Source: Clostridia bacterium (GTDB lineage: Bacteria; Bacillota; Clostridia; UMGS1883). Taken from it: 64,000 bases of DNA. The notes below the pieces were generated by a model. The model worked only from the letters and a program-made list of their open reading frames with translations. It did not search any database and was not told the origin of the DNA. Of this stretch, positions 7,375 to 64,000 are shown in pieces. Each line of letters starts with the position of its first letter. Position 1 is the stretch's first letter. The stretch spans positions 31,065-95,064 of the forward strand of contig JAUNBL010000003.1 of assembly GCA_030527235.1 (NCBI GenBank), written 5' to 3'. The translations under genes were made by a program, and so were the position numbers.

Positions 7375-8725
7375 TATGATGGACAATAAAACATTCAAAA
7401 ATTTTGTCGCACTTGCCTTGCCGCTTGTTGTGCAGAATGTAATCCTTTCTTCGGTGAATCTGCTGGACAATATTATGGTGGGTCAGCTCGGAGAAACAGC
7501 TCTCGCCGGCGTCAGCATGGCGAACAGGGTCTTTAACCTCTATAATATTATGATGTTTGGTTTATGCAGCGGAGCGATAATATTTTTCTCGCAATACTGG
7601 GGCAAACAAGACTCTGAGGGAATAAAAAATGTAATGTCGCTCACACTAATTGTGGCGCTTGCTACTGCAGCTGTGTTCTTTGCCGCTTCACAACTTTTTA
7701 CCAATGAAATTCTTACTGCGCTGTGTGGCAAAGAGAATGTGCAGATGATTGATTTGGGATGTAAGTATTTGAGAATCATGAGCGTGAGCTATGTGTTTTT
7801 TGCACTGATTTTTGTAATAAGCTCCGCTCTAAAAGCGATAGAAAAACCGCGCTTGGGACTCTACGCGGCAGTTATATCTCTCGGCTTGAACGCGGTTTTG
7901 AACTATTGTTTGATTTTTGGACGCTTCGGAATGCCGCGCTTAGAAGTGCGCGGCGCCGCGCTTGCTACACTTATTGCGCGCGCCGTTGAACTTTGTGCGC
8001 TTTTGGTATTGTCACACCGATACAAGGCTTTCATATATCCTAACCCCAAAAGGCTGTTTCGTTTACCGGCAGGCTTTGTGGCAAAGTGCATCTCTACAAG
8101 CATCATGGTGTTTTTTAACGAAACGTTTTGGGCTCTGGGAATAACCGTATATGGCGCTGTTTTTGCGCGCATGGGTGAAAATGTTGCCGCCGCACACGGA
8201 ATTGTGGGTACCGCAGAGAATTTTTTGTCTTCTTTGATTTTTGGAACGAGTGCAGCCGCTACCGTTATGATAGGAAAGGAAATCGGCTCGAAGAATATCG
8301 ACGGAGTGAAGCAGACAGTCGGTTTTTTTATAAGGACGAGTTTTATCTTGGGCGCTGTGACAGGAGTAATAGGGTTCTCTATTGCGCCGTTTATTGTGTC
8401 AATGTTTAATTTTACGCAGAGCTCCCGGGAGATTTCTGTGGCGATGCTCAGAGTATTGGCAATTTACATGCCGATACGTTCTTTTGTTATGACAGGGCTT
8501 GTCGGAATAATCCGCGCCGGAGGTGATACGCGATTTTGCATGACGGTGGACGTAGGCGGTTTGTGGTGTATTGGTGTGCCGTTAGCGTTTATATGCGCGT
8601 TTGTTTTGAAGCTTGATGCTCCCGTTGTATATGCCGCCGTACTGCTGGAGGAGCCTATTAAGTCGGTCTTTGCGATGCTGCGAATTAAAAGCGGGAAATG
8701 GATAAACGACCTGGTGAATGAATGA
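7375..8725 (+). CDS. MATE family efflux transporter
   Basis: 12-TM profile and MATE N-terminal signature (LALPLVVQNVI..NIMVGQLGETALAG). Confidence 0.8.
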
Positions 8726-8741
8726 CGCGAAAGGGGCAAAA

Positions 8742-10898
8742 ATGAAACAGACATTTACAGTTACAAAAATGACGTGCGCTTCATGCAGCGCACGAGTAGA
8801 AAAAATATGCTCGCACATTGACGGCGTGCGTGAGGTGCAGGTTAACCTCCTATCCGGGAGCATGGTCGTGGACTATGATGAAAACCTGACAGACAGCAGG
8901 GCGATTATAACGGCTGTAGAAGGTATCGGGTACGGGGCATATCTTGGAAAAAAGAGAGAGGAAGAACGCGACACGCTCAAGATGCGGCTGGTTGTTTCCG
9001 TATGTGCGCTTGTTCCGCTTATGTATCTTTCCATGGGACATATGTTGCATCTTCCGCTGCCGCACGGCATATTAAACATATCTCTCCAGTGCATACTGAC
9101 GCTTATAATTGCGGCTGTGAATTACAGCTATTACGTATCTGGAGCAAAAGCGTTAATGCATTTTTCGCCCAACATGGATACGTTGGTTTCCATCGGCACG
9201 CTTGCGGCGTTTGTGTCTTCGTTTTTGGCGCATTCAGAAGCTTATTTTGAGTCCGCCGGAACTATACTTACACTTATTACCGTTGGAAAATATTTGGAGG
9301 GCAGGGCAAAGCGCTCTACAAGAGCGGCAATTGCTTCGCTGATAAACCTGGCGCCCAAAAGTACGATTGTTATCCGCGGTGGAGTTGAGCGAGAAGTCCC
9401 TTTTGAAGATATACAAAGTGGGGATATTTGCGTTGTACGTGCCGGCGGTACAATTGCTGTAGACGGCGTAGTCACAAGCGGCAGCGGATTTGTGAACGAA
9501 GCGGCCGTGACAGGGGAGAGCGCACCTGTAAAAAAGGGGATGGGCGAGAGCGTGATAAGCGCGACGCTGCTCGACAGCGGCTATCTGACATACCGCGCCA
9601 CAAGGGTCGGTGAGGATACAACACTTTCTCAGATTGTACGTCTTGTAGAAGAGGCGGCAAATTCCAAGGCACCGATTTCACGGTTAGCTGATAAGATAAG
9701 CGCCGTTTTCGTACCGGTAGTTATGGCGATTGCTGTAATAACGTTTGTTGTCTGGTACGCCATGGGCGCAGGTGCTTCTTTTGCGCTCTCTATGGCAGTT
9801 TCGGTACTTGTAGTTTCCTGCCCATGCGCACTCGGGCTTGCAACGCCGGTTGCGATAATGGTTGGCACCGGACGCGGTGCACAGATGGGAATTCTGATAA
9901 AGAGTGCAGAGAGCCTTGAGGTCGCGCATCGTGTGGATACAATTGCAATGGACAAGACCGGAACCTTGACCATGGGTACCCCCGAAGTAGTATATTTTTC
10001 TGAAGACGCAAGGCTGCCGCAGGTGGCGGCGGCGCTTGAGGCGTACTCTGACCACCCGCTTGCAAAAGGAATTTGCCGACGTTTTGAAAGTGAAAAGAGT
10101 GTGGAAGGCTTTGAAAGCATAACAGGGAAAGGCGTGCGTGGGATAATAGACAAAAAAGCGGCGCTCGGCGGGAGCAAGGCTTTTTTGGAAGAGAATAACA
10201 TTGATGTTTCTTCCGCCGAGACAAAAGCGAAAGAAATAGGCTCAGAGGGAAGCAGCGTTGTCTATTTTTCGCTCGGCGGTGAGTTTTTGGGAATAATTGC
10301 GCTAGGTGATGCTCTGCGTGAAAACTCAGCTGAAGCTGTGCAAAAATTTTTCAAAATGGGACTTGACGTTTTGCTTCTTACGGGTGATAATATAGATGTT
10401 GCGCAAAGTGTAGCAAAAAAGTGCGGCATCAAAAATGTTTACGCATCTCTTTTGCCGTGGCAAAAAGATGAGATAATAGACTCGCTTAAAACTGAAGGCA
10501 GGTGCGTTGCCTTCGTGGGAGACGGGATTAACGATGCGCCGTCGCTTATGCGCTCAGACGTGGGAATTGCCGTAGGAGCAGGTACGGATATTGCGATGGA
10601 GGCAGCAGACATTGTGCTTATAAAAAACGATATCCGTTCAGCGGCAGTGGCTATAGGTCTGAGCCGCGCCTGTATGCGTACGATAAAGATGAATTTGTTT
10701 TGGGCATTTTTCTATAACGTACTCGGCATACCCATTGCGGCGGGGCTGCTCTATCTTCCGCTGCAGCTTACCTTAAATCCTATGCTGGCGGCGGCGGCCA
10801 TGAGTTTCAGTTCTATATGCGTTGTTTTGAACGCATTATCTTTGAGGAGGTACAGAGGTCATGAAAACAATAGTGAAAATACAAGGGATGACATGTGA
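8742..10898 (+). CDS. copA: copper-translocating P1B-type ATPase
   Basis: N-terminal HMA domain MTCASC, CPC transduction motif, DKTGTLT phosphorylation site, GDGINDAP. Confidence 0.9.
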   Translation: MKQTFTVTKMTCASCSARVEKICSHIDGVREVQVNLLSGSMVVDYDENLTDSRAIITAVEGIGYGAYLGKKREEERDTLKMRLVVSVCALVPLMYLSMGHMLHLPLPHGILNISLQCILTLIIAAVNYSYYVSGAKALMHFSPNMDTLVSIGTLAAFVSSFLAHSEAYFESAGTILTLITVGKYLEGRAKRSTRAAIASLINLAPKSTIVIRGGVEREVPFEDIQSGDICVVRAGGTIAVDGVVTSGSGFVNEAAVTGESAPVKKGMGESVISATLLDSGYLTYRATRVGEDTTLSQIVRLVEEAANSKAPISRLADKISAVFVPVVMAIAVITFVVWYAMGAGASFALSMAVSVLVVSCPCALGLATPVAIMVGTGRGAQMGILIKSAESLEVAHRVDTIAMDKTGTLTMGTPEVVYFSEDARLPQVAAALEAYSDHPLAKGICRRFESEKSVEGFESITGKGVRGIIDKKAALGGSKAFLEENNIDVSSAETKAKEIGSEGSSVVYFSLGGEFLGIIALGDALRENSAEAVQKFFKMGLDVLLLTGDNIDVAQSVAKKCGIKNVYASLLPWQKDEIIDSLKTEGRCVAFVGDGINDAPSLMRSDVGIAVGAGTDIAMEAADIVLIKNDIRSAAVAIGLSRACMRTIKMNLFWAFFYNVLGIPIAAGLLYLPLQLTLNPMLAAAAMSFSSICVVLNALSLRRYRGHENNSENTRDDM

Positions 10899-52521: not shown

Positions 52522-52562
52522 TTCAAAAAAAGTATTGACAACGAATTAAGCTTCGGCTATAA
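52522..52562 (+). promoter_or_regulatory. consensus sigma-A promoter with UP element for tRNA-Asn
   Basis: tttcaaaaaaagtaTTGACAacgaattaagcttcggcTATAAT, 17 nt spacer. Confidence 0.55.
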
Positions 52563-52590
52563 TCTTTCAAGTAAGCTGATTTTGAAATAT

Positions 52591-52666
52591 TCCTCAATAG
52601 CTCAGTCGGTAGAGCATGCGGCTGTTAACCGCAGGGTCGTTGGTTCGAGTCCAACTTGAGGAGCCA
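52591..52666 (+). tRNA. tRNA-Asn (anticodon GTT), CCA encoded
   Basis: Cloverleaf folds by eye: acceptor tcctcaa/ttgagga, D-arm gctcagtcggtagagc, anticodon loop cTGTTAa, T-arm gttggttcgagtccaac. Confidence 0.9.
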
Positions 52667-52670
52667 TATA

Positions 52671-52713
52671 TACTGAACGATTTGGATGCACTCCAAATTG
52701 TTCAGTATTTTTG
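52671..52713 (+). terminator. tRNA terminator hairpin; its 5' arm is copy 1 of a repeated motif
   Basis: tactgaacgatttgg/ccaaattgttcagta 15-bp stem then TTTTTG. Confidence 0.6.
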
Positions 52714-52772
52714 CGCCTTTGCGGGCTTTTTGAAAAATGGGCATTCAATGGTTTTTGGTAGATGCACCCACC

Positions 52773-52819
52773 GATTTGACAGGACTTGAACCGGGGATAC
52801 CCACTAAAAAGCTGAAATA
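52773..52819 (+). repeat. repeat copy A of GATGCAC..CAGGAnTTGAACCGGnGATA motif (diverged)
   Basis: Aligns by eye with copies at 52888 and 53483. Confidence 0.4.
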
Positions 52820-52887
52820 CAGCAAAAAAACATTCAGAAAATCAAATTCAAAATTCAAATTGAAAAACAGTAAAAAGCATATGTGAA

Positions 52888-52945
52888 CAATTTGGATGCA
52901 CAACAACTTTTTCAGGATTTGAACCGGAGATACACAAATTTATAT
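52888..52945 (+). repeat. repeat copy B: tgaacaatttggatgcacaacaactttttcaggatttgaaccggagatacacaaattta, upstream of gene at 53025
   Basis: Near-identical to copy at 53483-53540; contains TTGAAC -35-like hexamer. Confidence 0.55.
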
Positions 52946-52957
52946 AGAATACAAATC

Positions 52958-52996
52958 AGACGATAGTTTCTAATTAGAGATTATCGTCTTTTTTTG
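52958..52996 (+). terminator. hairpin plus T7 tract (member 1 of tatcgtcTTTTTTT terminator family)
   Basis: agacgatagtttctaa/ttagagattatcgtct then ttttttt. Confidence 0.55.
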
Positions 52997-53024
52997 TGCT
53001 CAAAAACGAAAGGACAGGATGAAT

Positions 53025-53402
53025 ATGAATCAGACGGAGTTTGAACATTGGCAAAAAGTTATGGACAGCAGCAAATATAGATGGGTTGAGGATGTCGTTG
53101 CTCGCCATAATGGTCATGGTTCTTTATATTACACCGGCGGTGAAGACGGCATCTATATGCGCATCTCCGCAGAGGGAAAGCTTACGATTGGAGAATATAA
53201 GGACGCATTTCCTCATATTGGAGAAGCAACATTTATTCCAAAAGCAGAGCATCAATACGATAGCTATAGCAAGGCTTTTGAGGCAGCCTGTAAGCTCGGT
53301 GGCGTACAGTTTCTCGCAGATATGTTTTCAAACGTTCAAATACCGCAAGAGCCGATTCCAACCGATGAAAGCGACAGCAATGGTATGAATATGGAAATGT
53401 AG
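53025..53402 (+). CDS. hypothetical protein (126 aa), first gene of element region
   Basis: ORF with AAAGGACAGG RBS; acidic C-terminus; no recognised motif. Confidence 0.4.
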   Translation: MNQTEFEHWQKVMDSSKYRWVEDVVARHNGHGSLYYTGGEDGIYMRISAEGKLTIGEYKDAFPHIGEATFIPKAEHQYDSYSKAFEAACKLGGVQFLADMFSNVQIPQEPIPTDESDSNGMNMEM

Positions 53403-53482
53403 CTTGTAAGAACAAGGTGTTATATATTACTACACTGATATCTTCCGTTTTGAGAACTTGAAACGCTATGACGGCATGTGCT

Positions 53483-53540
53483 GAACAATTTGGATGCACA
53501 ACAACTTTTTTAGGATTTGAACCGGAGATATATAAATTTC
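53483..53540 (+). repeat. repeat copy C: ctgaacaatttggatgcacaacaacttttttaggatttgaaccggagatatataaatttc, upstream of gene at 53571
   Basis: Near-identical to copy B. Confidence 0.55.
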
Positions 53541-53570
53541 TTAAAATACAAAATACAAGGAGAGATGCAC

Positions 53571-54227
53571 ATGAAAAATAACAGACTTTTAGACCAAATG
53601 CTGAAAATGCTTCCAAAGCACGAGCGAGTGAGCTATGAAGCAGCCACAGCGAGAATTGATGTTATCATTGACGGAAGTCCTAAATTCTACATACGGGAAA
53701 GCGGCGGCGTTACCTTTCCTGCAAATATGCTACATGATGATTTGTCCCGCAATTTACACGATGAGATTGTGCTGACAAGAGAGTGCGTGTCGGAATATTT
53801 GTTTGCAATGGACAATGCCTCCGATCTAAAGGCGTATGACTTTAATATGCCATACAAAAAGATTTTGGAATATAACGGTGTAGTGCTTGGCGGATTAGAA
53901 ACCAAAGACGGCGAATACAATTTTACAACCTGGAATTATGTCAAAGGAAGCTTGTACCACGGTCATTATTACGGAAAAGACTATAAAAAGGCAAAGGAGG
54001 ATTTTGTAACACGGTCAGGTCTTGTGAATGAAAACAGATTATTTACAGAAAAAGAAATGACCGCAATTTACAGAAGTGTTTCGGAAACGCTTGAAAGCGG
54101 ATATGAGCTTGACGATGAACAAATCAAGCTGCTAAAAGATATAAGAGATAAAATTGAATATGCTGTCCCAAGCCTTGATGAAACGGTCTGCGAGTCAAAC
54201 AATCAAGAATACGGACAGTCATTATAA
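53571..54227 (+). CDS. hypothetical protein (218 aa)
   Basis: AAGGAGAG RBS before ATG at 53571; no recognised motif. Confidence 0.4.
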   Translation: MKNNRLLDQMLKMLPKHERVSYEAATARIDVIIDGSPKFYIRESGGVTFPANMLHDDLSRNLHDEIVLTRECVSEYLFAMDNASDLKAYDFNMPYKKILEYNGVVLGGLETKDGEYNFTTWNYVKGSLYHGHYYGKDYKKAKEDFVTRSGLVNENRLFTEKEMTAIYRSVSETLESGYELDDEQIKLLKDIRDKIEYAVPSLDETVCESNNQEYGQSL

Positions 54228-54240
54228 CAGGAGGTATAAA

Positions 54241-55398
54241 ATGTTTACGGCAAATATAAGATATAATGATTCAAGTGCAAATATTGAATTTCCCTGCGAT
54301 AATAGCTATTTATATTCCAAGCTTATGGAGATGCGTGTATCAGAGCAAACATATCAAGATCTAAAGCTGTTTGTGAAAAAAATAGACTATGATGCGTTAT
54401 CATGCCTTGAGGACAACTTCGTTGATTTAGGCGAACTGAATTTTTTGGCACAGCGGTTAGACAGTTTTAGTTATCAGGAGGTAGTTAAGTTTAATGCTGT
54501 TGTTAAAGAATTCGGCATTAAGACGATGCCGGAGTTTATCAATCTGACATATAATATGCATTACTATACCCTGCTGCAAGACTTGAGCAGCGCTGAAAAA
54601 ATCGGCAAAACGTATATGCTTACGAGAAATGGCGGAATGTCTGAAAAAGAAATATTGGAAACGGATTTTGAAAAAATCGGGAAACAGCTTATTGAATCGG
54701 GACGAGGCAGACTTACAGAGCATGGTCTGTTATTTGTCAATGATGATTTGCCATATGACCATGAATATAACGGAGTAACACTGCCGTGCTTTTTTTATCG
54801 CGACTGCTTATTTACTGTATCGATGGGATATGACGGTAAAACAAGCTATGTGCATTTGCCCGATGTACCGTATGCAATATCAAATGCAGTTAACAGACTC
54901 GGCGCAGCTTCACCGATGGATTGTAAAGTGGAATTTGAGCAATTTGGTATAGAAAATATTGATTTGCAGGAAAGACTCAAAGCTGTTGTGGTGAACGAAG
55001 GAATATACAAGCTAAATGAAATTGCGGCGGCGATTCATGAAATTTCAGATTACGAGGAACTGCAGAAATTAACAGATATTATTGAATTTTCAGGGCGAGA
55101 GGACGGTGACACAATTATAAGTCTCGCAAAAAATATTGATGAATTCATATTCTACCCTGATGTTGCAGATGCAGATGCGCTTGGCAGAGCAATAATTGAA
55201 GAAAATGAGGAATATCACATTCATCCGGATATTGCGGACTATTTTATGTTTGAGCAGTATGCAGAGGAAATAATGCGGGAATGTGACTGCAAATTCACGG
55301 AAAATGGCGCAGTCTTATTAAAAAGTAAAACGCTTACCGAAATTCTCAGAGAGGAACAAAGCGGTGAATGCATTAACAGAGGTATTGAATCGATGTAG
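54241..55398 (+). CDS. expanded ArdA-like anti-restriction protein (386 aa)
   Basis: By-eye similarity to Tn916 ArdA: GELNFLAQRLDSF vs ArdA IGELNRLWEMVSEL, and acidic C-terminal module FYPDVADADALGRAIIEENEE / IADYFMFEQYAEEI; paralog of 58690..59931. Confidence 0.45.
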   Translation: MFTANIRYNDSSANIEFPCDNSYLYSKLMEMRVSEQTYQDLKLFVKKIDYDALSCLEDNFVDLGELNFLAQRLDSFSYQEVVKFNAVVKEFGIKTMPEFINLTYNMHYYTLLQDLSSAEKIGKTYMLTRNGGMSEKEILETDFEKIGKQLIESGRGRLTEHGLLFVNDDLPYDHEYNGVTLPCFFYRDCLFTVSMGYDGKTSYVHLPDVPYAISNAVNRLGAASPMDCKVEFEQFGIENIDLQERLKAVVVNEGIYKLNEIAAAIHEISDYEELQKLTDIIEFSGREDGDTIISLAKNIDEFIFYPDVADADALGRAIIEENEEYHIHPDIADYFMFEQYAEEIMRECDCKFTENGAVLLKSKTLTEILREEQSGECINRGIESM

Positions 55399-55474
55399 GT
55401 AGTTAAAATACAATTAGCAAATACAAATGGTTGGAACAAACAAAAACATAGGACAATTATACGGGAGGATAAAG

Positions 55475-56659
55475 ATGAACAAGAACAATCTTACAAAACA
55501 AGAACGAATACAAGAACATATCAAAGAATTTTTGAATGACGGAGAAGTTCATGGAATTAGAAAAATATACGATTATGTTGATATGAAGCTTAAAGAGGAT
55601 GGCGAATACATCTTTGAAATCAACACATATGTTAATATAGCAATTAAAAAACTTATTAACGATGGCGAATATGCTCGGGTTGCAAAAGGGTTATACCAAA
55701 AAGGCGGAACACCTTATATAGCACAAAGGAAACCATCAAATTCAAGTAAAGAGCGTAAAAGCAAGATGGCATCAGTTTCTGTGAGTGATTTTGCAAACAA
55801 GGCGCGCGCATTGCTTAAAGGAAGACCATCGGTATCTAACATAACTGACGCTGAAAGTAAAAACTATGAGTCAATCAAAAGCTTTATGGAAACACAGCTT
55901 GATATCATAAAAGAAACGGCAAATAAGCTAAAAAGCATCTCGGCATCAACTGCAGCAAACGAAAAAATATGTGAGTATTTCAAAGAGATACTTGACGACG
56001 GCTATCCGCATAAGATGCAGGAAATTCAAAAGTATATATATGACAAAATGCTTGAGAACAACGAGTGGAATAAGGAAATAATGCCATGCGTATTTTACAA
56101 AACCATAGGCAATTTGGTAAACGATGAGGGTAATCCATATATAAAGGTGAAACACGGTGTATATCAGAAGGAACAAGAAGCGACGCACGATGTTAGGGAG
56201 TTTTCGCTGAATAATCTTGAAGACTTGCTTGATGACGGTTTTATGCTATCGGAAGATGCGATTGACCTGGAATTTCAGAATTATTTGCTTCAGGACGATA
56301 CAAAAGAACCAAAAGAAGAAGTAAAAAATATGATAGACAACATTAAGCAAGCGGTTAGCAAAACCGTTGATGGAGTTTCCTATCTAATGGCGTTTATTGA
56401 AGATTGTCAAAATGACAGAGAAAGCATGAAAAAATATTCCATATTAGAGATGAAATCCGGCAAATATATAGTTTTCCAAGAGCATGAAAAATATAAGCTT
56501 GGGGAAGAAAATGACAGAATAATTTTTAATGACGAGGCCGATGCAAATATGACTCTTGAACTTTTAAATGATGTAAGCGACGGCTGTTTTGTTCTCCTTG
56601 ATGAAGACATTGATGAAAAGCTACAACCGACAGACGAAATGACGATGGACGGCATGTAA
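55475..56659 (+). CDS. acidic protein with two tandem HARE-HTH-like winged-helix modules
   Basis: Internal duplication: IQEHIKEFLNDGEVHGIRKIYDYV..YARVAKGLYQK and ICEYFKEILDDGYPHKMQEIQKYIYDKM..YIKVKHGVYQK, each ending in the RVxxGxY motif characteristic of HARE-HTH. Confidence 0.45.
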   Translation: MNKNNLTKQERIQEHIKEFLNDGEVHGIRKIYDYVDMKLKEDGEYIFEINTYVNIAIKKLINDGEYARVAKGLYQKGGTPYIAQRKPSNSSKERKSKMASVSVSDFANKARALLKGRPSVSNITDAESKNYESIKSFMETQLDIIKETANKLKSISASTAANEKICEYFKEILDDGYPHKMQEIQKYIYDKMLENNEWNKEIMPCVFYKTIGNLVNDEGNPYIKVKHGVYQKEQEATHDVREFSLNNLEDLLDDGFMLSEDAIDLEFQNYLLQDDTKEPKEEVKNMIDNIKQAVSKTVDGVSYLMAFIEDCQNDRESMKKYSILEMKSGKYIVFQEHEKYKLGEENDRIIFNDEADANMTLELLNDVSDGCFVLLDEDIDEKLQPTDEMTMDGM

Positions 56660-56809
56660 TTATGATTGGCCGAAGCATCGGTTTCAAACCAAAAGGATAT
56701 ATTAGGCAATTCCCGAAAGAAGGCGCTTGAAAGCTTGTGCAGTACGCAGATTGATTTTTTTGATTTATATGATAAAATAAATACATATCAAAACAAGGAG
56801 GTGGCTGCT

Positions 56810-57892
56810 GTGATAAAAAACGGAAGCATTATGGCGGGAGACATTGAAACCGCAAGGCTTGCTGATGGCAAAATTATTCCTGTGCTGGGGGAGCTTATGC
56901 CGCTTTATCTGCAAAAGGAAAATGACATAATGGGCTGGCTTTCGGGCAGAGCGATAGACAGCCGCAGAACGAATGCCAGACTGCTGAAAAAAGCAATGCG
57001 GATTACAGCTTTATGCGACGCCGATGTTGTATTAAGAGTTCACGCGGCAACCATCACAGATAAATATTGGTTCAAAGAAGAAGACAGCCGACTTTGCTAT
57101 GACGATGTAAAATTCAAAGAAAATGTTTTTGATAAGCTGGTGCTCTGCGGCGATCCCGACAGCTTTAATAACGAGGGCGATTCAACGCCGGAGCTTACCA
57201 ATACGGGCAGCTTTGAAAAGTGCTGGCGGATAACGGACGGCGTTTGGTGGTTGTATAAGCAGGGAAACGATAACGAAAGATTTTCCGAATTGTTTATATA
57301 TCTTCTCGGCAAGACGCTTGGCTTTAATATGGCTTATTATGAGCTTGAGGACGGATATATCAAAAGCCGTGATTTTACCGCCGGCGCAGAGGTGAACTAC
57401 GAGCCGATGCACAGCCTTGTGGGAGAGGACGAGGACTACCAAAGGAGCTTTGAAATTCTAAACAGTCTATGCCCCGGCGCCGCAAAGGATTTTGTAAAGA
57501 TGATATATCTTGATACAATCTGCTTTAATATGGACAGGCACACGAGGAACTACGGCGTTTTGAGAAATACTGAAACAGGCGAAATAATAGGCTTGGCGCC
57601 CAACTTTGATAATAATATTGCGCTGATAGCCCGGGGATATCCGAAAAACATTGAAAGAACCAATGACAGGCTTATAACGCTTTTCGGACAGTTTATTTCC
57701 GATAATGCTGCGGCAATGGCATATTATGATGAAATAGACAGGAGCATTCTTACAGAGGAGCTGCTGAATCACTTGATTGACCAAACAGGCTTTGAGGTTG
57801 ACAGAGAGCATATAGTAAAATTTATTATGTCGGGTGACGCGGTTGTTTGTGAGATGGCGTCGGGACAGGAACACGGTTTGAAAATGGAATAG
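56810..57892 (+). CDS. HipA-like / CtkA-like serine-threonine kinase domain protein
   Basis: HipA_C-like motifs: GSFEKCW (G.Q.K-like), catalytic NMDRHTRNYGVL (cf. HipA D-x-H-x-K-N), LAPNFDNNIAL (cf. LAPAYD). Start set at GTG after AAGGAGG; the track ORF extends 144 nt further 5'. Confidence 0.55.
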   Translation: MIKNGSIMAGDIETARLADGKIIPVLGELMPLYLQKENDIMGWLSGRAIDSRRTNARLLKKAMRITALCDADVVLRVHAATITDKYWFKEEDSRLCYDDVKFKENVFDKLVLCGDPDSFNNEGDSTPELTNTGSFEKCWRITDGVWWLYKQGNDNERFSELFIYLLGKTLGFNMAYYELEDGYIKSRDFTAGAEVNYEPMHSLVGEDEDYQRSFEILNSLCPGAAKDFVKMIYLDTICFNMDRHTRNYGVLRNTETGEIIGLAPNFDNNIALIARGYPKNIERTNDRLITLFGQFISDNAAAMAYYDEIDRSILTEELLNHLIDQTGFEVDREHIVKFIMSGDAVVCEMASGQEHGLKME

Positions 57893-57914
57893 CTAATAAT
57901 TGAATAATTAAAAT

Positions 57915-57954
57915 CAGACGGTAATTTCTTAATTGAAGTTATCGTCTTTTTTTA
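57915..57954 (+). terminator. hairpin plus T-run (member 2 of terminator family)
   Basis: cagacggtaatttctt aatt gaagttatcgtct ttttttt. Confidence 0.5.
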
Positions 57955-57982
57955 TACAAAAAATGTATAGGAGGAATATGTA

Positions 57983-58354
57983 ATGGCTAAAAGAATTGAA
58001 GCTTGCCGAGAGGAACAAAGCAACGAAATTAAATACGACCTTATTGAGGTAGTAGAACAGAAGGCGCTTTTTACCAATGCACGGCTTACAGATGAAGATG
58101 TTTCTGACGGATTATATTGTTATCATCTGCGCTATTCCGACAGCGAAAACGGCTTTATAAGCATTGAACCGAGGGTTGGTGTAAACCACGGCGGATCGGT
58201 TATAACAAAATTTCCGATTGATTTTGGTGATGACGGATATATCTCGTTTGACGATGATACCTCGCCCAATTTTCTTGGCGAACATATGACAATATGGGAA
58301 TATGTGCAGACTGATTTTGAACAGGAACAAACAGGCGGCATAAATCAATGCTGA
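57983..58354 (+). CDS. hypothetical protein (123 aa)
   Basis: ORF with GGAGGAATATG start context; no recognised motif. Confidence 0.4.
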   Translation: MAKRIEACREEQSNEIKYDLIEVVEQKALFTNARLTDEDVSDGLYCYHLRYSDSENGFISIEPRVGVNHGGSVITKFPIDFGDDGYISFDDDTSPNFLGEHMTIWEYVQTDFEQEQTGGINQC

Positions 58355-58384
58355 CAAGGAACTATGAAAGAAGGGAGAGATAAT

Positions 58385-58678
58385 ATGAACGGATTTCCAA
58401 GCAAAGAAATTGTTGACAGCATAAGGCGGCAATATCCGCCCGGCACACGGATAGAGCTTATATCAATGGACGATCCCTACAGCAAGCTTGAACCCGGCGA
58501 CAGGGCTACCGTTACGGGAGTTGATGACATTGCCACCGTACACTGCAATTGGGACAGCGGAAGCTCTTTGGGACTCGCCTACAGCGAAGACAGATTCAGG
58601 AAGCTTACCGAACAGGAAATTGCCGAGGAACAGAAGCAGTCGGAGCAACCAAATGACGGCATGAATATGAACTTGTAG
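58385..58678 (+). CDS. DUF4314-like small protein
   Basis: G..I.LISMDDPYSKLEPGDRATVTGVDDIATVHCNWDSGSSLGL matches my recollection of the DUF4314 pattern common in Clostridia conjugative elements. Confidence 0.4.
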   Translation: MNGFPSKEIVDSIRRQYPPGTRIELISMDDPYSKLEPGDRATVTGVDDIATVHCNWDSGSSLGLAYSEDRFRKLTEQEIAEEQKQSEQPNDGMNMNL

Positions 58679-58689
58679 GAGGTATAAAA

Positions 58690-59931
58690 ATGTCTTTGAA
58701 AGAAAAATTAGCATTAGAATTAACGACAGTTAATCCTGTCAGCGGTGAATATATTTATACAGATTTGCTTCTTCCTGCATTGCCCTTTGAGATTGAGGAT
58801 GCAATGCAGAGAGCAAGAATCACAAGTAACTATGCCGATATGCTTGATATATCGGTTCTAAACTGCGCATATTTGCCGGAGCTTACCGACACAATGCTGG
58901 ATGGAGCGTCAATCAAGGAGCTGAACCTGTTTGCAAAACGGCTGCAGACACTAAGCGATGACGAGATATACGCACTAAACGGTGTGTTTATGCAGCAAAA
59001 GGAAAACGGGATGTATGAAAACGGCATATCAATGGAGGAATTGATAAACCTTACATACGGTCTTGACGCTGTCCCTATTGTTCACGGAATAGATTCCGAT
59101 GAGAAAATCGGTGAATTTGTGATTGACAACAACCTATGTGAAGAACTTGTCGGAACAACGCCGGATTCAATAAGGTTTTTGGATAAAGCCTTAATCGGAA
59201 AGGCGCACAGAGAATCCGAAAAAGGTCAGTTTGTTGCGGGAAACTATGCGGCAACGGCAATCTATTCATTTCCGCAGGAGTATAAAGGCGTAAGCAGAGA
59301 AAAGTTAAAAATCAATAACGACATTGCGTTTGTATTGGAGGTTGCAGAAGCTCCGGTAAACGACAGCCGGGAAACAGCCGAAACTGCCGAAGCCTTGTAT
59401 CTCCCAATACCCAAGTCGGATGCTGATGAATTGGCGATTGCCCATAATGAAAAATGCATTGAGGATTGCGTATATTATGATTTTAAAAGCGCTATCCCCG
59501 GCATTGACAGCGAGATGTTCACAGATATGCAGGACTTTGACAAGCTCAATGAAATTGCCGACAGGTATATTTCGTTTTCGGTGTCAGACAAAATCAAGCT
59601 TAAAGCGGTTGTCGCAAAGGAATGTCCTAAAGCCTTGGAGGATGTAATTGATATTTGCAATAACTTGCGAAGGTACGAGCTTTCATATTACAGCGATGAT
59701 GCAAATAATTTTGCTAAGGAATATCTTTCACATCATCTGTCATCAGACTTTGACTGCAAGATATTTGACGGTATTTCCCTTGATGCGCTCGGTCAAAACA
59801 TTATCAAGGTGTTGGGTGCGACCGTCACACCTTATGGCATAGTATCGGAAAGGGACGGCAGCCTTTTTGAAATAAAAAACAAGCACGAGGAAGCCTTGGA
59901 TCAAGACTTCGGAGAAATTCAGCAATGCTGA
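58690..59931 (+). CDS. expanded ArdA-like anti-restriction protein (413 aa), paralog of 54241..55398
   Basis: Shares LP(F)..SIKELNLFAKRLQ..INLTY blocks with the 54241 gene and ArdA-like ELN.L motif. Confidence 0.45.
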   Translation: MSLKEKLALELTTVNPVSGEYIYTDLLLPALPFEIEDAMQRARITSNYADMLDISVLNCAYLPELTDTMLDGASIKELNLFAKRLQTLSDDEIYALNGVFMQQKENGMYENGISMEELINLTYGLDAVPIVHGIDSDEKIGEFVIDNNLCEELVGTTPDSIRFLDKALIGKAHRESEKGQFVAGNYAATAIYSFPQEYKGVSREKLKINNDIAFVLEVAEAPVNDSRETAETAEALYLPIPKSDADELAIAHNEKCIEDCVYYDFKSAIPGIDSEMFTDMQDFDKLNEIADRYISFSVSDKIKLKAVVAKECPKALEDVIDICNNLRRYELSYYSDDANNFAKEYLSHHLSSDFDCKIFDGISLDALGQNIIKVLGATVTPYGIVSERDGSLFEIKNKHEEALDQDFGEIQQC

Positions 59932-59944
59932 GAAAGAGAGGATA

Positions 59945-60337
59945 ATGATAAAAATGAGAGTTTTGGCAGTAAAAATGGAAGAAAATTTGTTTGATGAGCT
60001 AAAGGCACATGTTAAAAAGTCAGGGCTGACCATGCAGCAATATGTTAATACAACGCTTGAAAGAGATATTCATTCACAGGCACAGACGCAGACGCAGGAT
60101 AATCAGCCAAAGGTATGGGAAAAGGACGAGGTCGAAAAGGCAATTGACGCATTCATTTCTCAAAACGGCAGAGTTCCTCGTCAGACTGAATTCAAAAACG
60201 AGAACGGTCTGCCGTCATACAAGGCGGCGGCAAGATGCTTGGACAGCTCCCCTGCTCAATATGCGCAAAGGCGCATGGATGAAACGGGAATTGCTGAACA
60301 AGAACAGGAAGCCGAAGATTTTTCAATGAGTATGTGA
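59945..60337 (+). CDS. ribbon-helix-helix (CopG/Arc-like) domain protein
   Basis: N-terminal MRVLAVKMEENLFDELKAHVKKSGLTMQQYVNTTLERDI fits the ribbon-helix-helix beta-alpha-alpha pattern. Confidence 0.5.
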   Translation: MIKMRVLAVKMEENLFDELKAHVKKSGLTMQQYVNTTLERDIHSQAQTQTQDNQPKVWEKDEVEKAIDAFISQNGRVPRQTEFKNENGLPSYKAAARCLDSSPAQYAQRRMDETGIAEQEQEAEDFSMSM

Positions 60338-60339
60338 AC

Positions 60340-60376
60340 AGGCGGTATCTTCAAAAGAGGGTATCGTCTTTTTTGT
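60340..60376 (+). terminator. hairpin plus T-run (member 3 of terminator family)
   Basis: aggcggtatc ttcaaaagag ggtatcgtct tttttt (G-U containing stem). Confidence 0.5.
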
Positions 60377-60713
60377 GTACCATGAAAAAGCAGGAAGGGA
60401 GAATAAAGCGGTGGATGAAAGAAACGAAAAGCTTTGCAGGGAAATCGGTGTGACCGCAGCAGATATCATATGTCTTTGGTGCGCATACGAGGAAACGCCG
60501 GAGGAGTTTTGCACATCCTTGATGTGCTCCGCAAGATATGAGGACAAGGAAAATATTATTGCAGATATGCGTTCGGACGCAGACAGGATATCCGCTGCGG
60601 TATATGAGATGGACATAGACGTATTGGATACACTGTACAGAGATTTTGGGATTTCCCTTACAGAATATTCCGACAGTCTGAACAGATCGCTTACAGGCGA
60701 GACTATAACCTAA
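60375..60713 (+). CDS. hypothetical protein (112 aa)
   Basis: ORF only; Cys-containing, acidic. Confidence 0.35.
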   Translation: MYHEKAGRENKAVDERNEKLCREIGVTAADIICLWCAYEETPEEFCTSLMCSARYEDKENIIADMRSDADRISAAVYEMDIDVLDTLYRDFGISLTEYSDSLNRSLTGETIT

Positions 60714-60734
60714 ACACAGATGTCCCCCGCCTCG

Positions 60735-60875
60735 CAAGAAGGCGAGTTCCATTTCAGAATTTCAGTGGGGGAAATAATCCCCCACTGAAACCCTGAGGAG
60801 CTAACGCTCCCTGTGTAGGTTGCAATCTGTCGCAAGCTCTGCTCCTTGCAAGCAAAGCAGAGCGTTGCTCCGATT
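60735..60875 (+). other. cluster of perfect hairpins in a 300-nt non-coding gap (candidate oriT-like or structured RNA region)
   Basis: tttcagtggggg aaataa tcccccactgaaa (13-bp stem), gcctcgc aagaa ggcgag, gctctgct ccttgcaagcaa agcagagc. Confidence 0.4.
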
Positions 60876-61006
60876 TAAAGCAAGCAGGAGATAAAACAAT
60901 ATGCGGAGCTTTTAATGCGGATTGCGGCGGATATGACGCACGGCGGAGTAAAGTGCATCAGCTTTTACAAGCAGTACATAAAGCAAGAATATGAGGAGGA
61001 GTCAAA

Positions 61007-61492
61007 ATGTTAAAAAATATTGATGTTATAAACAAAATTCATGAGGAATGCAGACAGATTGACGCATTGTCGGCAAGAATTACGGCGATATGCGATATGG
61101 AGGAGCTTGACATTTTCGAGCTTGCAGACAGCAAGGACGGAATATTTACAGACAGCATACAAAGGCACATACTTTCTGTGGCGGCGCTTCTGAGGCTTCT
61201 GACAGAGGACTATAAAGCAACGCTTGTATCAACTGACTTTTTCGCTGACGAATTTTTGGGACATACAAGACGCATAGAAGCCGACAAGGAGGTTTTGTGC
61301 GAGGAATGGGATTCGGTTATGGAGGAAATATGGAGTCTTGAGGCGTTTTGTGAAACGGAGCTGAAAAGCTATCTGCAAATGACGCAGAGCTGCTATCGTC
61401 ATGAATTCGAGCCGATCAAGATTGTGTTCGGGGAGGATAGCATATGTCAAGACGGTTTTTGGGAAATACCAAGCTGTTCCCCTTCGAGGTAA
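61007..61492 (+). CDS. hypothetical protein (161 aa)
   Basis: ORF with GGAGGAG RBS; no recognised motif. Confidence 0.4.
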   Translation: MLKNIDVINKIHEECRQIDALSARITAICDMEELDIFELADSKDGIFTDSIQRHILSVAALLRLLTEDYKATLVSTDFFADEFLGHTRRIEADKEVLCEEWDSVMEEIWSLEAFCETELKSYLQMTQSCYRHEFEPIKIVFGEDSICQDGFWEIPSCSPSR

Positions 61493-62115
61493 TGATGCAG
61501 GAAATCCCTACTGCCGTCCAAATAGCAAGAGAGGACAGAAGGGCGTTCGTCAGATATGTTAATTTATTGAATCGCTTTCTGCGGGAAAAGGATTTGGACA
61601 TAATTATAGAAAGAGTAACAGGCGAGATACATAATATGATGTTCGACGAGTTTCTGTTCAAAAGCGCACGGCATAAATCGGATTTCTATACAGCCTACAA
61701 CCGATATATTACATCGGTCGGAAACGAAAAGGTAAAAAATGAAAGGATAGCCGTGTTATATTTATTGAGCGCCGAGGAAAGACTGAGCAATATGCTTCGG
61801 AACTTCGCTGCAGGCAAGAGCAATTCCCTCGCAGGCGCTGTCGGCGGCATTGGCGAGGCGGGATACAGCCTGTATCATACTGCAAGATATATATTAGGGC
61901 TGCCATCGCAGATATGCGCCGAGGACATAACGGAAGACGGGATTATATCGGACGGCGTCCTGTGCATTTTAATAAACGGATTGCTGCTTGCGGAGTACGG
62001 AAATGCAGCGCTGACGGGAGAATATAAAAAAGCGGCGCAGCATTTAAAAACACCGCACAGAGAAAAAAGCCACAGATACAGCTACAAGGATCAAGCAATA
62101 AGAGTAAAGATGTAA
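61492..62115 (+). CDS. hypothetical protein (207 aa), translationally coupled to the preceding gene (TAATG overlap)
   Basis: ATG overlaps upstream stop; GAGG RBS; the track's longer version 61444.. overlaps the upstream gene by 49 nt. Confidence 0.4.
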   Translation: MMQEIPTAVQIAREDRRAFVRYVNLLNRFLREKDLDIIIERVTGEIHNMMFDEFLFKSARHKSDFYTAYNRYITSVGNEKVKNERIAVLYLLSAEERLSNMLRNFAAGKSNSLAGAVGGIGEAGYSLYHTARYILGLPSQICAEDITEDGIISDGVLCILINGLLLAEYGNAALTGEYKKAAQHLKTPHREKSHRYSYKDQAIRVKM

Positions 62116-62128
62116 AGGAGGTATTGTT

Positions 62129-62242
62129 GTGGGATATGTAATAGTATTCGCTATAGGTGCATTTTTCGGATTCGGAATGATTTGTGCGTTTACAATCAGC
62201 GGACAGGAATCAAGAAAAGAAGAAAATATTGATAACATATGA
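62129..62242 (+). CDS. predicted 37-aa single-TM peptide (VGYVIVFAIGAFFGFGMICAFTISGQESRKEENIDNI), not in the ORF track
   Basis: AAAGGAGG RBS 7 nt upstream of GTG; hydrophobic helix then charged tail; followed by terminator. Confidence 0.3.
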   Translation: MGYVIVFAIGAFFGFGMICAFTISGQESRKEENIDNI

Positions 62243-62265
62243 GCTGAAAATCAATTCATGGAAAA

Positions 62266-62310
62266 GGGCGGTCATTTTACGGAGCAATCCGTGAGATGAC
62301 CGCTTTTTTC
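62266..62310 (+). terminator. rho-independent terminator
   Basis: ggcggtcat..atgaccgc stem with nested acgga/tccgt, then ttttttcg. Confidence 0.55.
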
Positions 62311-62452
62311 GTTTCAGGAAGAAAGTGAGGCGTTTGAGGTGTCAAATCGTATCAGGGACGCACCTTAGATTGGGCAAACACAAATGCGGTCGCTGCTTTC
62401 TGAAACAAAACAGCCGACCGTTTAACGAAAACCCAAACGGAGGTGAGAGAAG

Positions 62453-63466
62453 ATAGGCAGAAATATCAAAAGTCCGTTTGGCTGGGTAGGCGGAAAGGGA
62501 TCATCAAAGCACATAATCCTTCCGAGCTTGCCGCTTGGCTGCGACAGGTTTATAGAGGTGTTCGGCGGAGGCGCAACAATTCTTTTGTCAAAGCTTGCGG
62601 ATAAGTTTGAGGTGTATAACGATTTTAACTCGGATCTGGTAAATATGTTTATGTGTATACGAGATATGCCGTTGTCCTTTGTGAGAGCGGTAGGATGTTT
62701 TCCGCTGGTCAGCAGACAGGAATTTAAGCTGCTGCAGGATTTTCTGCAGCGCAAGCAATTTGATTACAGCCTTATCGAACAAGAAAAGAAAGCTGCAAGA
62801 GAAATCTTTAACGAAGAAGAAGCGAACCGAATTTGCACGATCCTACAGGGACGGACGGAGCTATACAATGTGGACAGAGCAGCGGCGTTTTATAAAGTAA
62901 TACGCCTAAGCTACGGAAGCAGCGGCAAAAGCTTCGGAAGTCAACCGGAGAATTTGGGTAAGACGCTTTTAGACATTTATGCGATATCAGACAGGCTTAA
63001 AAATGTTGTCATTGAAAACAAGGATTTTGAAAGCCTGATTAAGCAATACGACAGAACAAACTCCGCATTTTATTGCGATCCCCCGTACTATCAGTCAGAG
63101 GGCTTTTACGAGGTGGAGTTTGGCACAGAGGACCATCTGAGACTGAGTGAATGTCTGCATAGCATAAAAGGCAAGTTTCTGCTTTCGTACAACGATTGCA
63201 GCTTTATAAAAGACTTGTATAAGGATTGTATGATTTACGAGTTTTCCCGTCCGCATTCACTTGCCCAGCGATACAGAGCAGGGAGCGTGTTTAAAGAACT
63301 GCTTATATCGAATTTTGATATGAATGAACGAAGAAAAAGCGAACCCGTACAATTAAATTTATTTGGAGATGAGATATATGCAAGAGACCTTTTACAAGAC
63401 TATAGGCAGAAAAGGCAGAACAACTATACCGTTATGTATGAGGCTTGTCTTAGGGATAAGAGATAA
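62453..63466 (+). CDS. Dam-like (D12 class) N6-adenine DNA methyltransferase, orphan; apparent non-canonical start
   Basis: Conserved N-terminal KSPFGWVGGK and FGGGA (motif I) and DPPY (motif IV, CDPPYY). These lie upstream of the first canonical start (TTG 62528). In-frame stop at 62444; candidate ATA at 62453, 9 nt after GGAGG. Confidence 0.65.
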   Translation: MGRNIKSPFGWVGGKGSSKHIILPSLPLGCDRFIEVFGGGATILLSKLADKFEVYNDFNSDLVNMFMCIRDMPLSFVRAVGCFPLVSRQEFKLLQDFLQRKQFDYSLIEQEKKAAREIFNEEEANRICTILQGRTELYNVDRAAAFYKVIRLSYGSSGKSFGSQPENLGKTLLDIYAISDRLKNVVIENKDFESLIKQYDRTNSAFYCDPPYYQSEGFYEVEFGTEDHLRLSECLHSIKGKFLLSYNDCSFIKDLYKDCMIYEFSRPHSLAQRYRAGSVFKELLISNFDMNERRKSEPVQLNLFGDEIYARDLLQDYRQKRQNNYTVMYEACLRDKR

Positions 63467-63692
63467 TACATTATTAAGGTTCACGAGAACCGACAAGCAG
63501 GTAATCATCACACCGATGCGGGAATGTGAAAGCGGCATATGTGAAATGCACAGAAAAAGCACGCTTGACGCATCCGAAATCGAAACCTTAATCGGCGAGA
63601 TATCTGATGAAAGTCTGGCGCAGATGATACCTGTCATTGTAAACAAATTAAAGAAAAGCGCCGGAGCAGCTTCCGGCAGCGAGGAAAACTGA
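63378..63692 (+). CDS. AbrB/MazE-type (swapped-hairpin) DNA-binding protein
   Basis: IGRKGRTTIPLCMRLVLGIRDNTLLRF resembles the AbrB/MazE/SpoVT looped-hinge motif. Confidence 0.45.
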   Translation: MQETFYKTIGRKGRTTIPLCMRLVLGIRDNTLLRFTRTDKQVIITPMRECESGICEMHRKSTLDASEIETLIGEISDESLAQMIPVIVNKLKKSAGAASGSEEN

Positions 63693-63755
63693 AATAAAAC
63701 GCATCGTAAAAAACACTCCCCGACGCCATGCCGCTTTGGTGCGGAAAGGAACTAA

Positions 63756-64000
63756 ATGAAATATTTTGATATGTTTTCGGGAATCGGCGGCTTTCGTGCA
63801 GGGCTGTCTCAAATTGACGGAATGCAGTGCATCGGTCATTGCGAGATAGATAAATATGCAGACAAAAGCTACCGAAGCCTGTTTAATACAGAAGGAGAGT
63901 GGTTTTGTAATGATGCAGCAGCAATCAAACCGGAGGAAATGCCGGACTTTAATCTCTTGTGTGCGGGATTTCCCTGTCAGAGCTTTTCAATCGCAGGAAA
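63756..64000 (+). CDS. DNA (cytosine-5)-methyltransferase, N-terminal part (3' end outside window)
   Basis: Motif I FSGIGGF and motif IV GFPCQSFSIAG; ORF open at window end. Confidence 0.8.
   Translation, partial: MKYFDMFSGIGGFRAGLSQIDGMQCIGHCEIDKYADKSYRSLFNTEGEWFCNDAAAIKPEEMPDFNLLCAGFPCQSFSIAG

Follow-up and report, generated by a model that had tools for sequence, protein, structure and literature searches.

A tRNA-Asn-adjacent anti-restriction gene block of a Clostridia bacterium, probably the left end of a large integrative and conjugative element, and a C-terminal tail common to many of its proteins

Results

The locus and its junction

The window analysed here is a 64,000-nucleotide stretch of DNA from a Clostridia bacterium (UMGS1883 lineage; assembly GCA_030527235.1, contig JAUNBL010000003.1, positions 31,065 to 95,064 of the forward strand). 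Its last part, from 52667 onward, is a block of genes that begins directly 3' of an intact tRNA-Asn (GTT) gene (52591–52666, + strand), the sole tRNA that ARAGORN found in the window (Rfam tRNA, 70.7 bits). Between 53019 and the window end lie 16 genes (g01 to g16) and two mini-ORFs, every one of them on the + strand. The same gene list came from an independent gene call on a Logan metagenome contig of 11.5 kb, identical in sequence, which stops about 100 nt beyond the window. The original prediction, read from the letters of the DNA before any database search, had counted at least 15 same-strand genes, and all 16 of 16 are indeed co-oriented. They include two genes for ArdA-like proteins, two for DNA methyltransferases and one for a HipA/CtkA-like kinase. 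We propose that the block is probably the tRNA-proximal (attL) end of a large integrative and conjugative element (ICE), one of a family found in gut Clostridia, with its first ~11 kb forming an establishment and anti-restriction module.

The shift to A+T-richer DNA that had been noticed right after tRNA-Asn is visible in windowed base composition: G+C is 0.45–0.49 over most of the first 52 kb, 0.36–0.42 at 52–57 kb, and 0.42–0.47 onward to the window end. From sequence comparison, the left junction (attL) is placed at or just inside the tRNA-Asn 3' end, giving 52667 as the predicted left edge of the element, because homology among elements behind different tRNAs begins right after the CCA. 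The non-coding leader that follows (52667–53018, + strand) is conserved in a six-way alignment of elements located after tRNA-Asn, -Met, -Arg and -Cys, all of which keep the same layout: a hairpin (17 bp, 52670–52708 in the window), two bipartite repeats and a terminator-like hairpin. Folded as single-stranded DNA (ssDNA), the leader gives z values of -4.1 and -3.4, yet it contains two short local hairpins only.

The bipartite direct repeat has the form GATGCA-N14/15-GGAYTTGAACC and occurs three times in the window (52761–52792, 52895–52925 and 53493–53523), against zero copies expected. It is also present in the leaders of the related loci L008, L011, L013, L015 and L020. Its first half varies by element subgroup (AGATGCA or AGATAT), and its second half, when reverse-complemented, is tRNA T-loop-like. 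The third copy lies in a second copy of the leader module upstream of g02 (53476–53570, + strand), within a direct repeat of 109 nt whose two arms, 52884–52992 and 53482–53590, are 75% identical. The bipartite repeat may act as an operator or as an arm site for a recombinase. Use of its TTGAAC as a -35 box was rejected, as the distance to any -10-like hexamer differs between elements, and the repeats could not be fitted as degenerate inverted tRNA 3' halves.

Recurrence of the module behind different tRNAs

Relatives were found by scanning species-representative genomes with the D12-class methyltransferase g14, which gave 80 loci in Clostridia. The module recurs in these in variable order, comprising homologues of g02, ArdA-like protein 1 (g03), the ribbon-helix-helix (RHH)-like g09, g12, the D12 enzyme (g14), the AbrB-like g15 and the C5 methyltransferase (g16), plus the DUF4314 protein (g07), ArdA-like protein 2 (g08) and the LPD28 protein (g06). 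It starts about 300 nt after tRNA-Met in L008, tRNA-Asn in L011 and L020, tRNA-Arg in L013 and tRNA-Cys in L015. Host flanks are unrelated between genomes, with pyruvate formate-lyase, for example, in L020. Because the same module sits behind different tRNAs, with homology starting at the tRNA 3' end, the block is mobile; the tRNA-adjacent mobile insertion of the original prediction thus recurs at four kinds of tRNA amid unrelated host DNA. A further 28 loci, more distant ones, carry a gene for a rumA-type methyltransferase ~5.3 kb 5' of the D12 gene. An empty site was sought with the host genes, and the host was seen in one sample only. No repeat of the tRNA 3' end (attR) was found in the window or in the loci of 13–21 kb.

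The closest relative, L003 (72–77% identity), continues with genes for SpoVG, DUF3849, ParA, ParB and TnpV, followed by a polyvalent protein, longer than 1,260 aa, in which MutS_I and N6_Mtase domains are combined. Beyond the C5 gene, L020, L008 and L017 carry SpoVG, DUF3849, a surface protein of 1,800–1,900 aa with SLH/Ig domains, a Listeria-Bacteroides repeat protein, DUF4314 and ArdA-like protein 2. From there the elements were followed by look-ups of homologues of ArdA-like protein 2, TadB and DUF8193, using precomputed Pfam labels. The resulting same-strand chain begins with ArdA, YodL, SpoVG and DUF6133, and proceeds through a Tad-like locus (prepilin peptidase, RcpC, TadZ-like, CpaF, TadB, TadC, DUF4320) to an N6 methylase, DUF6550, DUF8193–8195, DUF3852 and DUF4313. 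It then reaches TrbL/VirB6, a VirB4-type ATPase, NlpC/P60 and DUF6329, and ends with a further C5 methylase or an LPD28 protein. The linkage of the D12 gene to the Tad-like locus was also seen in other loci, apart from the look-up chain, and the source genome, recognised by a 100% identical NCBI protein (Q4C12_01655), itself encodes a TadB homologue, Q4C12_07600, on another contig, of 17.5 kb. The VirB6/TrbL protein, VirB4-type ATPase and NlpC/P60 protein downstream in relatives lend support to the claim that the block belongs to a conjugative element.

Other searches were less productive. Plasmid collections gave no match, either as DNA or by tblastn. IMG/VR returned nothing with g08 alone and one distant match with an alignment of the ArdA-like protein 2 family, and a metagenome scan with a protein encoded past the secretion genes yielded just one contig, of 2 kb. 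An 89-kb IMG/VR contig (L099) that starts in VirB4 was walked for a relaxase, and none was met. In the 7872–9579 region of this contig, a few kb after a gene resembling that for ArdA-like protein 2, a Sel1-repeat protein with PDB matches is followed by ORFs whose N-termini appear by eye to be Ku- and LigD-like. A response-regulator-like N-terminus, also judged by eye, comes after the Sel1-repeat protein as well, and then a large surface protein.

Some further features of the relatives were observed. A complete Tad-like (Flp-type) pilus locus lies between the anti-restriction and VirB4/VirB6 genes in L039, L086, L090, L092 and L095; in L006 its place is taken by a PilB/PilT/PilM/N/O/C-type locus. 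Three tandem tyrosine-recombinase genes and an AbiEi-like gene are inserted after DUF6133 in L084 (5856–10736), in what looks like a recombinase-in-trio element. In elements of the L020 type, a group II intron reverse transcriptase/maturase gene follows DUF3852 (L090, 20026–20918; L091, 16656–17548), and insertion of this intron is a likely cause of contig breaks in these elements.

ArdA-like proteins and methyltransferases

The gene g03 (54241–55398, + strand) encodes a protein of 385 aa, ArdA-like protein 1, whose C-terminal half matches Pfam ArdA (PF07275; E 3.2e-10, 41.3 bits against a curated cut-off of 27). Its family profile matches ArdA of Tn916 (PDB 2W82, E 3e-4), and the two halves of g03 match each other (E 7e-4), indicating an internal duplication. 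ArdA-like protein 2, encoded by g08 (58690–59931, + strand), is 413 aa long and ends in a disordered C-terminal tail. g08 itself has no direct Pfam match; several of its homologues carry a precomputed Pfam ArdA match. It is paralogous to g03 (BLASTP 2e-10), each half of g08 being matched by the N-terminal module of g03, and the two family profiles align over their whole length in hhalign (99.8% probability, E 2e-29). An AlphaFold model of g08 built from 35 homologues reached pLDDT 86.8 and pTM 0.82, and the test for an ArdA fold was positive. Both proteins are strongly acidic, with net charges of -35 (g03) and -39 (g08) and pI values of 4.4–4.5. The presence of two expanded ArdA-like genes, as first suggested, is therefore borne out by both profile and fold. 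We read g03 and g08, on these alignments, as probable tandem duplications of an ArdA module, which would make them putative single-chain pseudo-dimers. Compared with ArdA (Orf18) of Tn916, they are ~2.4 times longer (385 and 413 aa versus ~165 aa) and only ~12% identical in sequence, with this apparent tandem duplication and, for g08 homologues, frequent fusion to LPD28. Homologues of g08 at ~40% identity are mostly fused to a C-terminal LPD28 domain, whereas in the window LPD28 is encoded separately, two genes upstream.

g14 (62453–63466, + strand) encodes a Dam-like, D12-class N6-adenine DNA methyltransferase of 337 aa (Pfam 1.1e-20, 74.9 bits) that also matches the PADLOC models MTase_II and oMTase. 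The gene starts at an ATA codon at 62453, 7 nt 3' of GGAGGTG; a TGA lies two codons upstream, and relatives align from residue 1. A canonical start is not available to g14, because the conserved N-terminal SPFGWVGGK motif would then be lost. In eight relatives, among them L003, L006, L009, L016, L017 and L020, the codon at this position is ATA, ATT or ATC, 6–7 nt after GGAGGTG, which suggests that g14 has a conserved weak start codon. Its 3' end is overlapped in another frame by about 90–100 nt of g15 (63378–63692, + strand; overlap 63378–63466), a gene for a small AbrB/MazE-like protein with a Pfam MazE_antitoxin match (5.8e-4) below the cut-off. The overlap is kept in all 19 of the 19 relatives that have the gene. 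Finally, g16 (63756–64000, + strand) encodes a C5 cytosine DNA methyltransferase (Pfam 4.6e-21, 76 bits) of which only the first 81 aa precede the window end; homologues in relatives are 368–408 aa at full length and are followed by SpoVG and DUF3849. Pfam thus confirms both the Dam-like and the C5 enzyme of the original prediction. Among the neighbours of g14 and g16 in the window there is no Pfam or PADLOC match to a nuclease, a class of enzyme that is often unrecognisable by sequence.

The kinase g05 and its upstream partner

g05 (56735–57892, + strand) encodes a HipA/CtkA-like Ser/Thr kinase of 385 aa. The match to HipA_C (PF07804; E 2.5e-7) is barely above the threshold, at 31.0 bits against a cut-off of 30.5, and sustains the HipA-like assignment made from the letters. 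The segment NMDRHTRNYG...APNFD of g05 aligns with NFDRHNGNWG...APIFD of CtkA (PDB 3AKJ), which we take to be the catalytic region. CtkA is encoded on a conjugative-type island of Helicobacter pylori. g05 also matches the PADLOC candidate family PDC-M03A (9e-12).

Upstream of it, g04 (55475–56659, + strand) encodes an acidic protein of 394 aa with two repeats of ~70 aa that are 39% identical (E 3e-10) and look winged-helix-like by eye. The repeats agree with the two modules claimed for g04; their identification as HARE-HTH finds no support, as neither HARE-HTH (PF05066) nor any other Pfam family matched at E<=0.1. A single-sequence structure model was unusable (pLDDT 36). There is a faint AbiEi match in PADLOC (0.0058), and one homologue is present, in L017. 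No HipB-type helix-turn-helix (HTH) antitoxin gene was found beside g05, and g04 has no HTH family match in Pfam. Thus, g05 shares the HipA_C domain with HipA/CtkA kinases (3AKJ), and differs in that its upstream gene encodes a 394-aa repeat protein and not a HipB-type protein.

Small and unannotated proteins

The first gene, g01 (53025–53402, + strand), encodes an acidic protein of 125–127 aa that is absent from the related loci examined. The next, g02 (53571–54227, + strand; 218 aa), is the first gene of the element in close relatives, with homologues 35–45% identical in first position in L006, L008, L009, L011, L015, L017 and L020. The gene g06 (57983–58354, + strand; 123 aa) had been listed as unannotated and turns out to be a clear solo LPD28 domain protein (Pfam LPD28 4.1e-30). 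It is followed by g07 (58385–58678, + strand; 97 aa), a DUF4314 protein (Pfam 1.5e-29) as first recognised, and a DUF4314 gene adjoins ArdA-like genes in 30 loci. The other two small-protein families named at the outset, AbrB-like (g15) and ribbon-helix-helix, are weak and fall below Pfam cut-offs. The latter is g09 (59954–60337, + strand), a small acidic protein of 127 aa with a weakly CopG/RHH-like N-terminus, kept in eight relatives directly after ArdA-like protein 1 or g02.

Towards the right, g10 (60411–60713, + strand) encodes a very acidic protein (pI 4.1) of 100 aa with longer relatives of 144 aa, and g11 (61007–61492, + strand) an acidic protein of 161 aa with homologues 25–27% identical in L006, L011, L017 and L046. 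g12 (61444–62115, + strand), which overlaps g11 by 49 nt, encodes a basic protein (pI 9.1) of 223 aa. It is the most widely conserved unknown of the module, its homologues adjoining ArdA-like genes in 42 loci, with only 40 representatives among 1.84 billion proteins. A g12 profile found no PDB relative and, with no family relative either, a recognisable nuclease was dismissed. g13 (62129–62242, + strand) is a hydrophobic mini-protein of 37 aa. g01, g02, g10, g11 and g12 have no match in Pfam, NCBIfam or PHROGs, and g01, g02, g11 and g12 have none in PADLOC.

Punctuation of the gene array

The tRNA-Asn promoter is a perfect 12/12 sigma-70 consensus, TTGACA-17-TATAAT, at 52535–52563, and but for the hairpins 3' of the tRNA gene it would drive strong read-through into the element. 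A terminator-like hairpin followed by T7 lies about 25 nt 5' of the g01 ATG (52958–52996, + strand), two related hairpins lie at 57916–57954 and 60340–60375 (+ strand), and a strong terminator is located 3' of g13 (62264–62313). Eight copies of the hairpin, from the window and relatives, show compensatory changes in 7 of 13 pairs and an invariant T-run after the stem. The three related hairpins (at 52958, 57916 and 60340) end 25–35 nt before the next start codon, which leaves no room for a sigma-70 promoter, and the ~350-nt leader contains no sigma-70-like site scoring at least 9/12. The suggestion that each gene has its own promoter and terminator fails, since there are only four terminator-like hairpins on the + strand and promoter-like matches are equally frequent on the empty strand. 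The array is instead split by the four hairpins into four or five read-through blocks. We infer read-through or antitermination control, plus insulation from the strong tRNA promoter.

Between g10 and g11 lies a structured, G+C-richer spacer of 293 nt (60714–61006, + strand) with a perfect 13-bp hairpin (60760–60790). As ssDNA it folds to -60 kcal/mol (z -6.3 versus shuffles). It is confined to this element, being found in none of the other 100 loci, and has no Rfam match. A relic of the relatives' 342-aa gene was ruled out as its source, as tblastn found no trace of it. A 32-aa ORF at 60915–61013 overlaps the start of g11.

A C-terminal tail shared by unrelated proteins

Many otherwise unrelated proteins of these elements have a common C-terminal tail, in which an acidic or Gln-rich stretch leads into G-(G)-M-x-M/L-x(0-2) at the extreme C-terminus. 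Four tails in the window are clear: g01 (...NGMNMEM, 53382–53402), g04 (...EMTMDGM, 56639–56659), g07 (...NDGMNMNL, 58658–58678) and g09 (...DFSMSM, 60317–60337). Weaker variants terminate g03 (...RGIESM), g05 (...HGLKME), g06 (...TGGINQC) and g08 (...GEIQQC). In relatives, including L008, L011, L017, L020, L090, L092 and L095, the tail is found on ArdA-like, DUF3846, SpoVG, DUF4314, DUF4313 and DUF6329 proteins and on many unknowns. At least two Met residues occur in the last six positions of 156 of the 1,104 + strand ORFs of the loci, versus 2 of 334 controls, and the motif is carried by none of the 50 host ORFs of the window. Met makes up 6–14% of the residues from -6 to -1, compared with an overall 2.9%; the Gly maximum is at -6 and -7, that of Glu between -10 and -12. 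When proteins were clustered on their sequences minus the last 25 residues, 11 distinct families had the tail in at least 40% of members. The methyltransferases, AbrB-like proteins, g12, the Tad ATPase and membrane proteins, VirB4, VirB6 and NlpC/P60 are tail-less.

Two other explanations were rejected. The tail is not an artefact of overlap with the Shine-Dalgarno sequence and ATG of the next gene, as stop codons precede the next ribosome-binding site. Nor is it a linker or protease site of polyvalent proteins, as fusions of ArdA-like protein 2 to LPD28 carry it at the very end only. In the g08 model the tail is disordered. We read it, from this pattern, as a putative C-terminal recognition signal, most attractively one for translocation by the secretion machinery of the element; it may also act as a degron or address proteins to the Tad-like machine.

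Discussion

Nature of the element

The block between tRNA-Asn and the window end is thus probably the attL end of a large ICE, and its gene set (an ArdA-like pair, two methyltransferases and a kinase) supports an anti-restriction and establishment role, in line with the anti-defence functions first suggested for it. From what is known of the families, the acidic g03 and g08 would mimic DNA and thereby titrate type I restriction enzymes. The Dam-like and C5 enzymes, again by family knowledge, would methylate the DNA of the element against type II systems. LPD28, DUF4314 and several small acidic proteins are likely solo versions of polyvalent-protein domains, presumed to aid early establishment. 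The HipA/CtkA-like kinase and its repeat-bearing upstream partner may form a toxin-antitoxin or defence-type addiction pair. All of these protein activities, and the timing of expression, are what we infer. The conserved AUH start of g14 and the terminator-punctuated leader suggest tight control of dosage.

This assignment is consistent with what has been described elsewhere. ArdA, YodL, LPD28 and MutS-I are parts of the toolkit of conjugative elements (PMC5512222), and anti-restriction, methyltransferase and toxin-antitoxin genes cluster in anti-defence islands of single orientation (PMC11541004). Polyvalent proteins, known from Tn1549-like and further conjugative elements of Firmicutes, share ArdA, LPD28, YodL, MutS-I and adenine methylase domains with the elements described here (Iyer et al. 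2017, PMC5512222). They differ in that the domains of the window lie in separate genes, each solo protein with its own C-terminal tail.

Several observations weigh against an ICE establishment module. The window contains no conjugation, relaxase or integrase gene, and the ICE architecture was chained through relatives with only 30–77% protein identity to the window. The block lacks SSB and PsiB-type genes, which plasmid leading regions typically have, and 9 of the 16 products have no annotated function. Moreover, g05 matches the candidate defence family PDC-M03A, so some of the genes may be cargo for defence or addiction and not serve anti-defence.

Alternative readings

The original prediction likened the block to a leading region. 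In the strict form of that reading, the origin of transfer (oriT) and relaxase would lie at the far right of the element and transfer would run across the attP joint, so that the module enters the recipient first and is expressed at once. A far-right relaxase with co-directional transfer across the attP joint holds in some Gram-positive elements. We consider this arrangement possible, with the balance tilting somewhat against it. No relaxase or coupling-protein Pfam match was found in the ~55 kb that extend from the tRNA to the end of the secretion genes (L090, L092, L095), a region in which many genes lack any match; on the leading-region view these genes must lie further right, beside the joint of the circular form. 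The leader and the spacer at 60714–61006 are also strongly structured as ssDNA. Against this, oriT and the relaxase were never seen; neither oriT, an integrase nor attR was met in the ~55 kb of chained relatives. A Frpo-like ssDNA promoter in the leader was rejected after folding both strands, which gave local hairpins only and no long hairpin with -35 and -10 boxes (homology to known Frpo was not searched). Transfer co-directional with transcription would bring in the coding strand, so that transcription would have to wait until the second strand had been made. ArdA-like, LPD28 and methyltransferase genes are found beyond the secretion genes in relatives too, and such anti-restriction genes are therefore not confined to one end. 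The block nevertheless resembles the anti-defence islands of plasmid leading regions in having clustered anti-restriction genes, orphan-looking methyltransferases, a toxin-like gene and many small unknowns on one strand (Samuel et al. 2024, PMC11541004). It differs in the chromosomal ICE setting, the lack of SSB/PsiB genes and of a Frpo-like promoter, and the presence of similar genes elsewhere in the element. A quite different route to the recipient would make gene position relative to oriT matter little: the donor could synthesise the products and pass them on along with the DNA through the secretion system of the element, the tail serving as the signal by which the Gram-positive conjugation system or the Tad-like machine exports establishment and anti-defence proteins. 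We offer this tentatively and think it rather unlikely. In its favour, at least 11 unrelated families, LPD28 included, share the acidic and G-M-x-M-x-M ending; it stays at the extreme C-terminus even in the fusions of ArdA-like protein 2 to LPD28, is disordered in the g08 model, and does not occur on methyltransferases, ATPases or membrane components. That polyvalent proteins are injected is an earlier proposal (PMC5512222), and F-like plasmids translocate many maintenance and leading-region proteins, some by C-terminal signals (PMC8406263, PMC11288057). There, too, establishment genes adjoin one another on a conjugative element; the signals of F-like plasmids are, however, positively charged or hydrophobic, whereas the tail described here is acidic with G-M-x-M, the system is Gram-positive and translocation is a conjecture from the sequence pattern (PMC8406263, PMC11288057). 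Two proteins within the Tad-like locus carry the tail as well, so it may serve another machine; a degron would also fit, and only four tails in the window are clear-cut, with about five more in weak form. It further counts against export that, to our knowledge, no comparable signal has been described for a Gram-positive conjugation system.

Two other readings were considered. The block could be a cargo island for defence or addiction, in which the methyltransferases are paired with unrecognised nucleases and the kinase acts in abortive infection, protecting the host and not the element; this we regard as improbable. The PDC-M03A match of g05 (9e-12) and the match of g14 to type II methyltransferase models fit such an island, and g10, g11 and the basic g12 are unknowns that could belong to it. 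Yet two ArdA-fold proteins together with LPD28 and DUF4314 are markers of counter-defence and establishment (PMC5512222), and in relatives the D12, AbrB-like and C5 genes are followed by SpoVG and DUF3849, not nucleases. In loci of the Lachnospiraceae type, the g12-like gene stands directly upstream of an ArdA-like gene and not beside a methyltransferase, and PADLOC gave no further match. A prophage or phage-derived island is more improbable still, to the point that we give it hardly any weight. The tRNA-adjacent insertion would fit it, phages too carry methyltransferases and anti-restriction genes, and one distant relative of ArdA-like protein 2 and a VirB4 relative are present on IMG/VR contigs. 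However, a search of 50,697 phage records gave no match, PHROGs matches only the kinase g05, in a family of unknown function, and none of the relatives showed a gene for a capsid, tail or terminase protein; they have secretion-system and Tad genes instead.

Significance

Almost nothing was found in the literature on the gene families of these elements. What is new here is the tail shared by at least 11 families; the element is otherwise of a known sort, conjugative and anti-restriction. The module, for its part, is a compact set of anti-restriction candidates, with two double-length ArdA folds and, in g02 and g12, proteins conserved across families that have no known relatives. If the delivery of proteins into the recipient were true, the tail would mark the effector repertoire of the element by sequence alone, the unknowns of the window included. 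As an export or recognition signal it would provide a simple rule for listing proteins sent ahead of or with the DNA, and a means of engineering the delivery of proteins from one gut bacterium to another. Elements of this family abound in the gut Clostridia of humans and animals, a single TadB variant occurring in 169 indexed assembly-collection blocks, and they are probable vehicles of gene flow among these bacteria.

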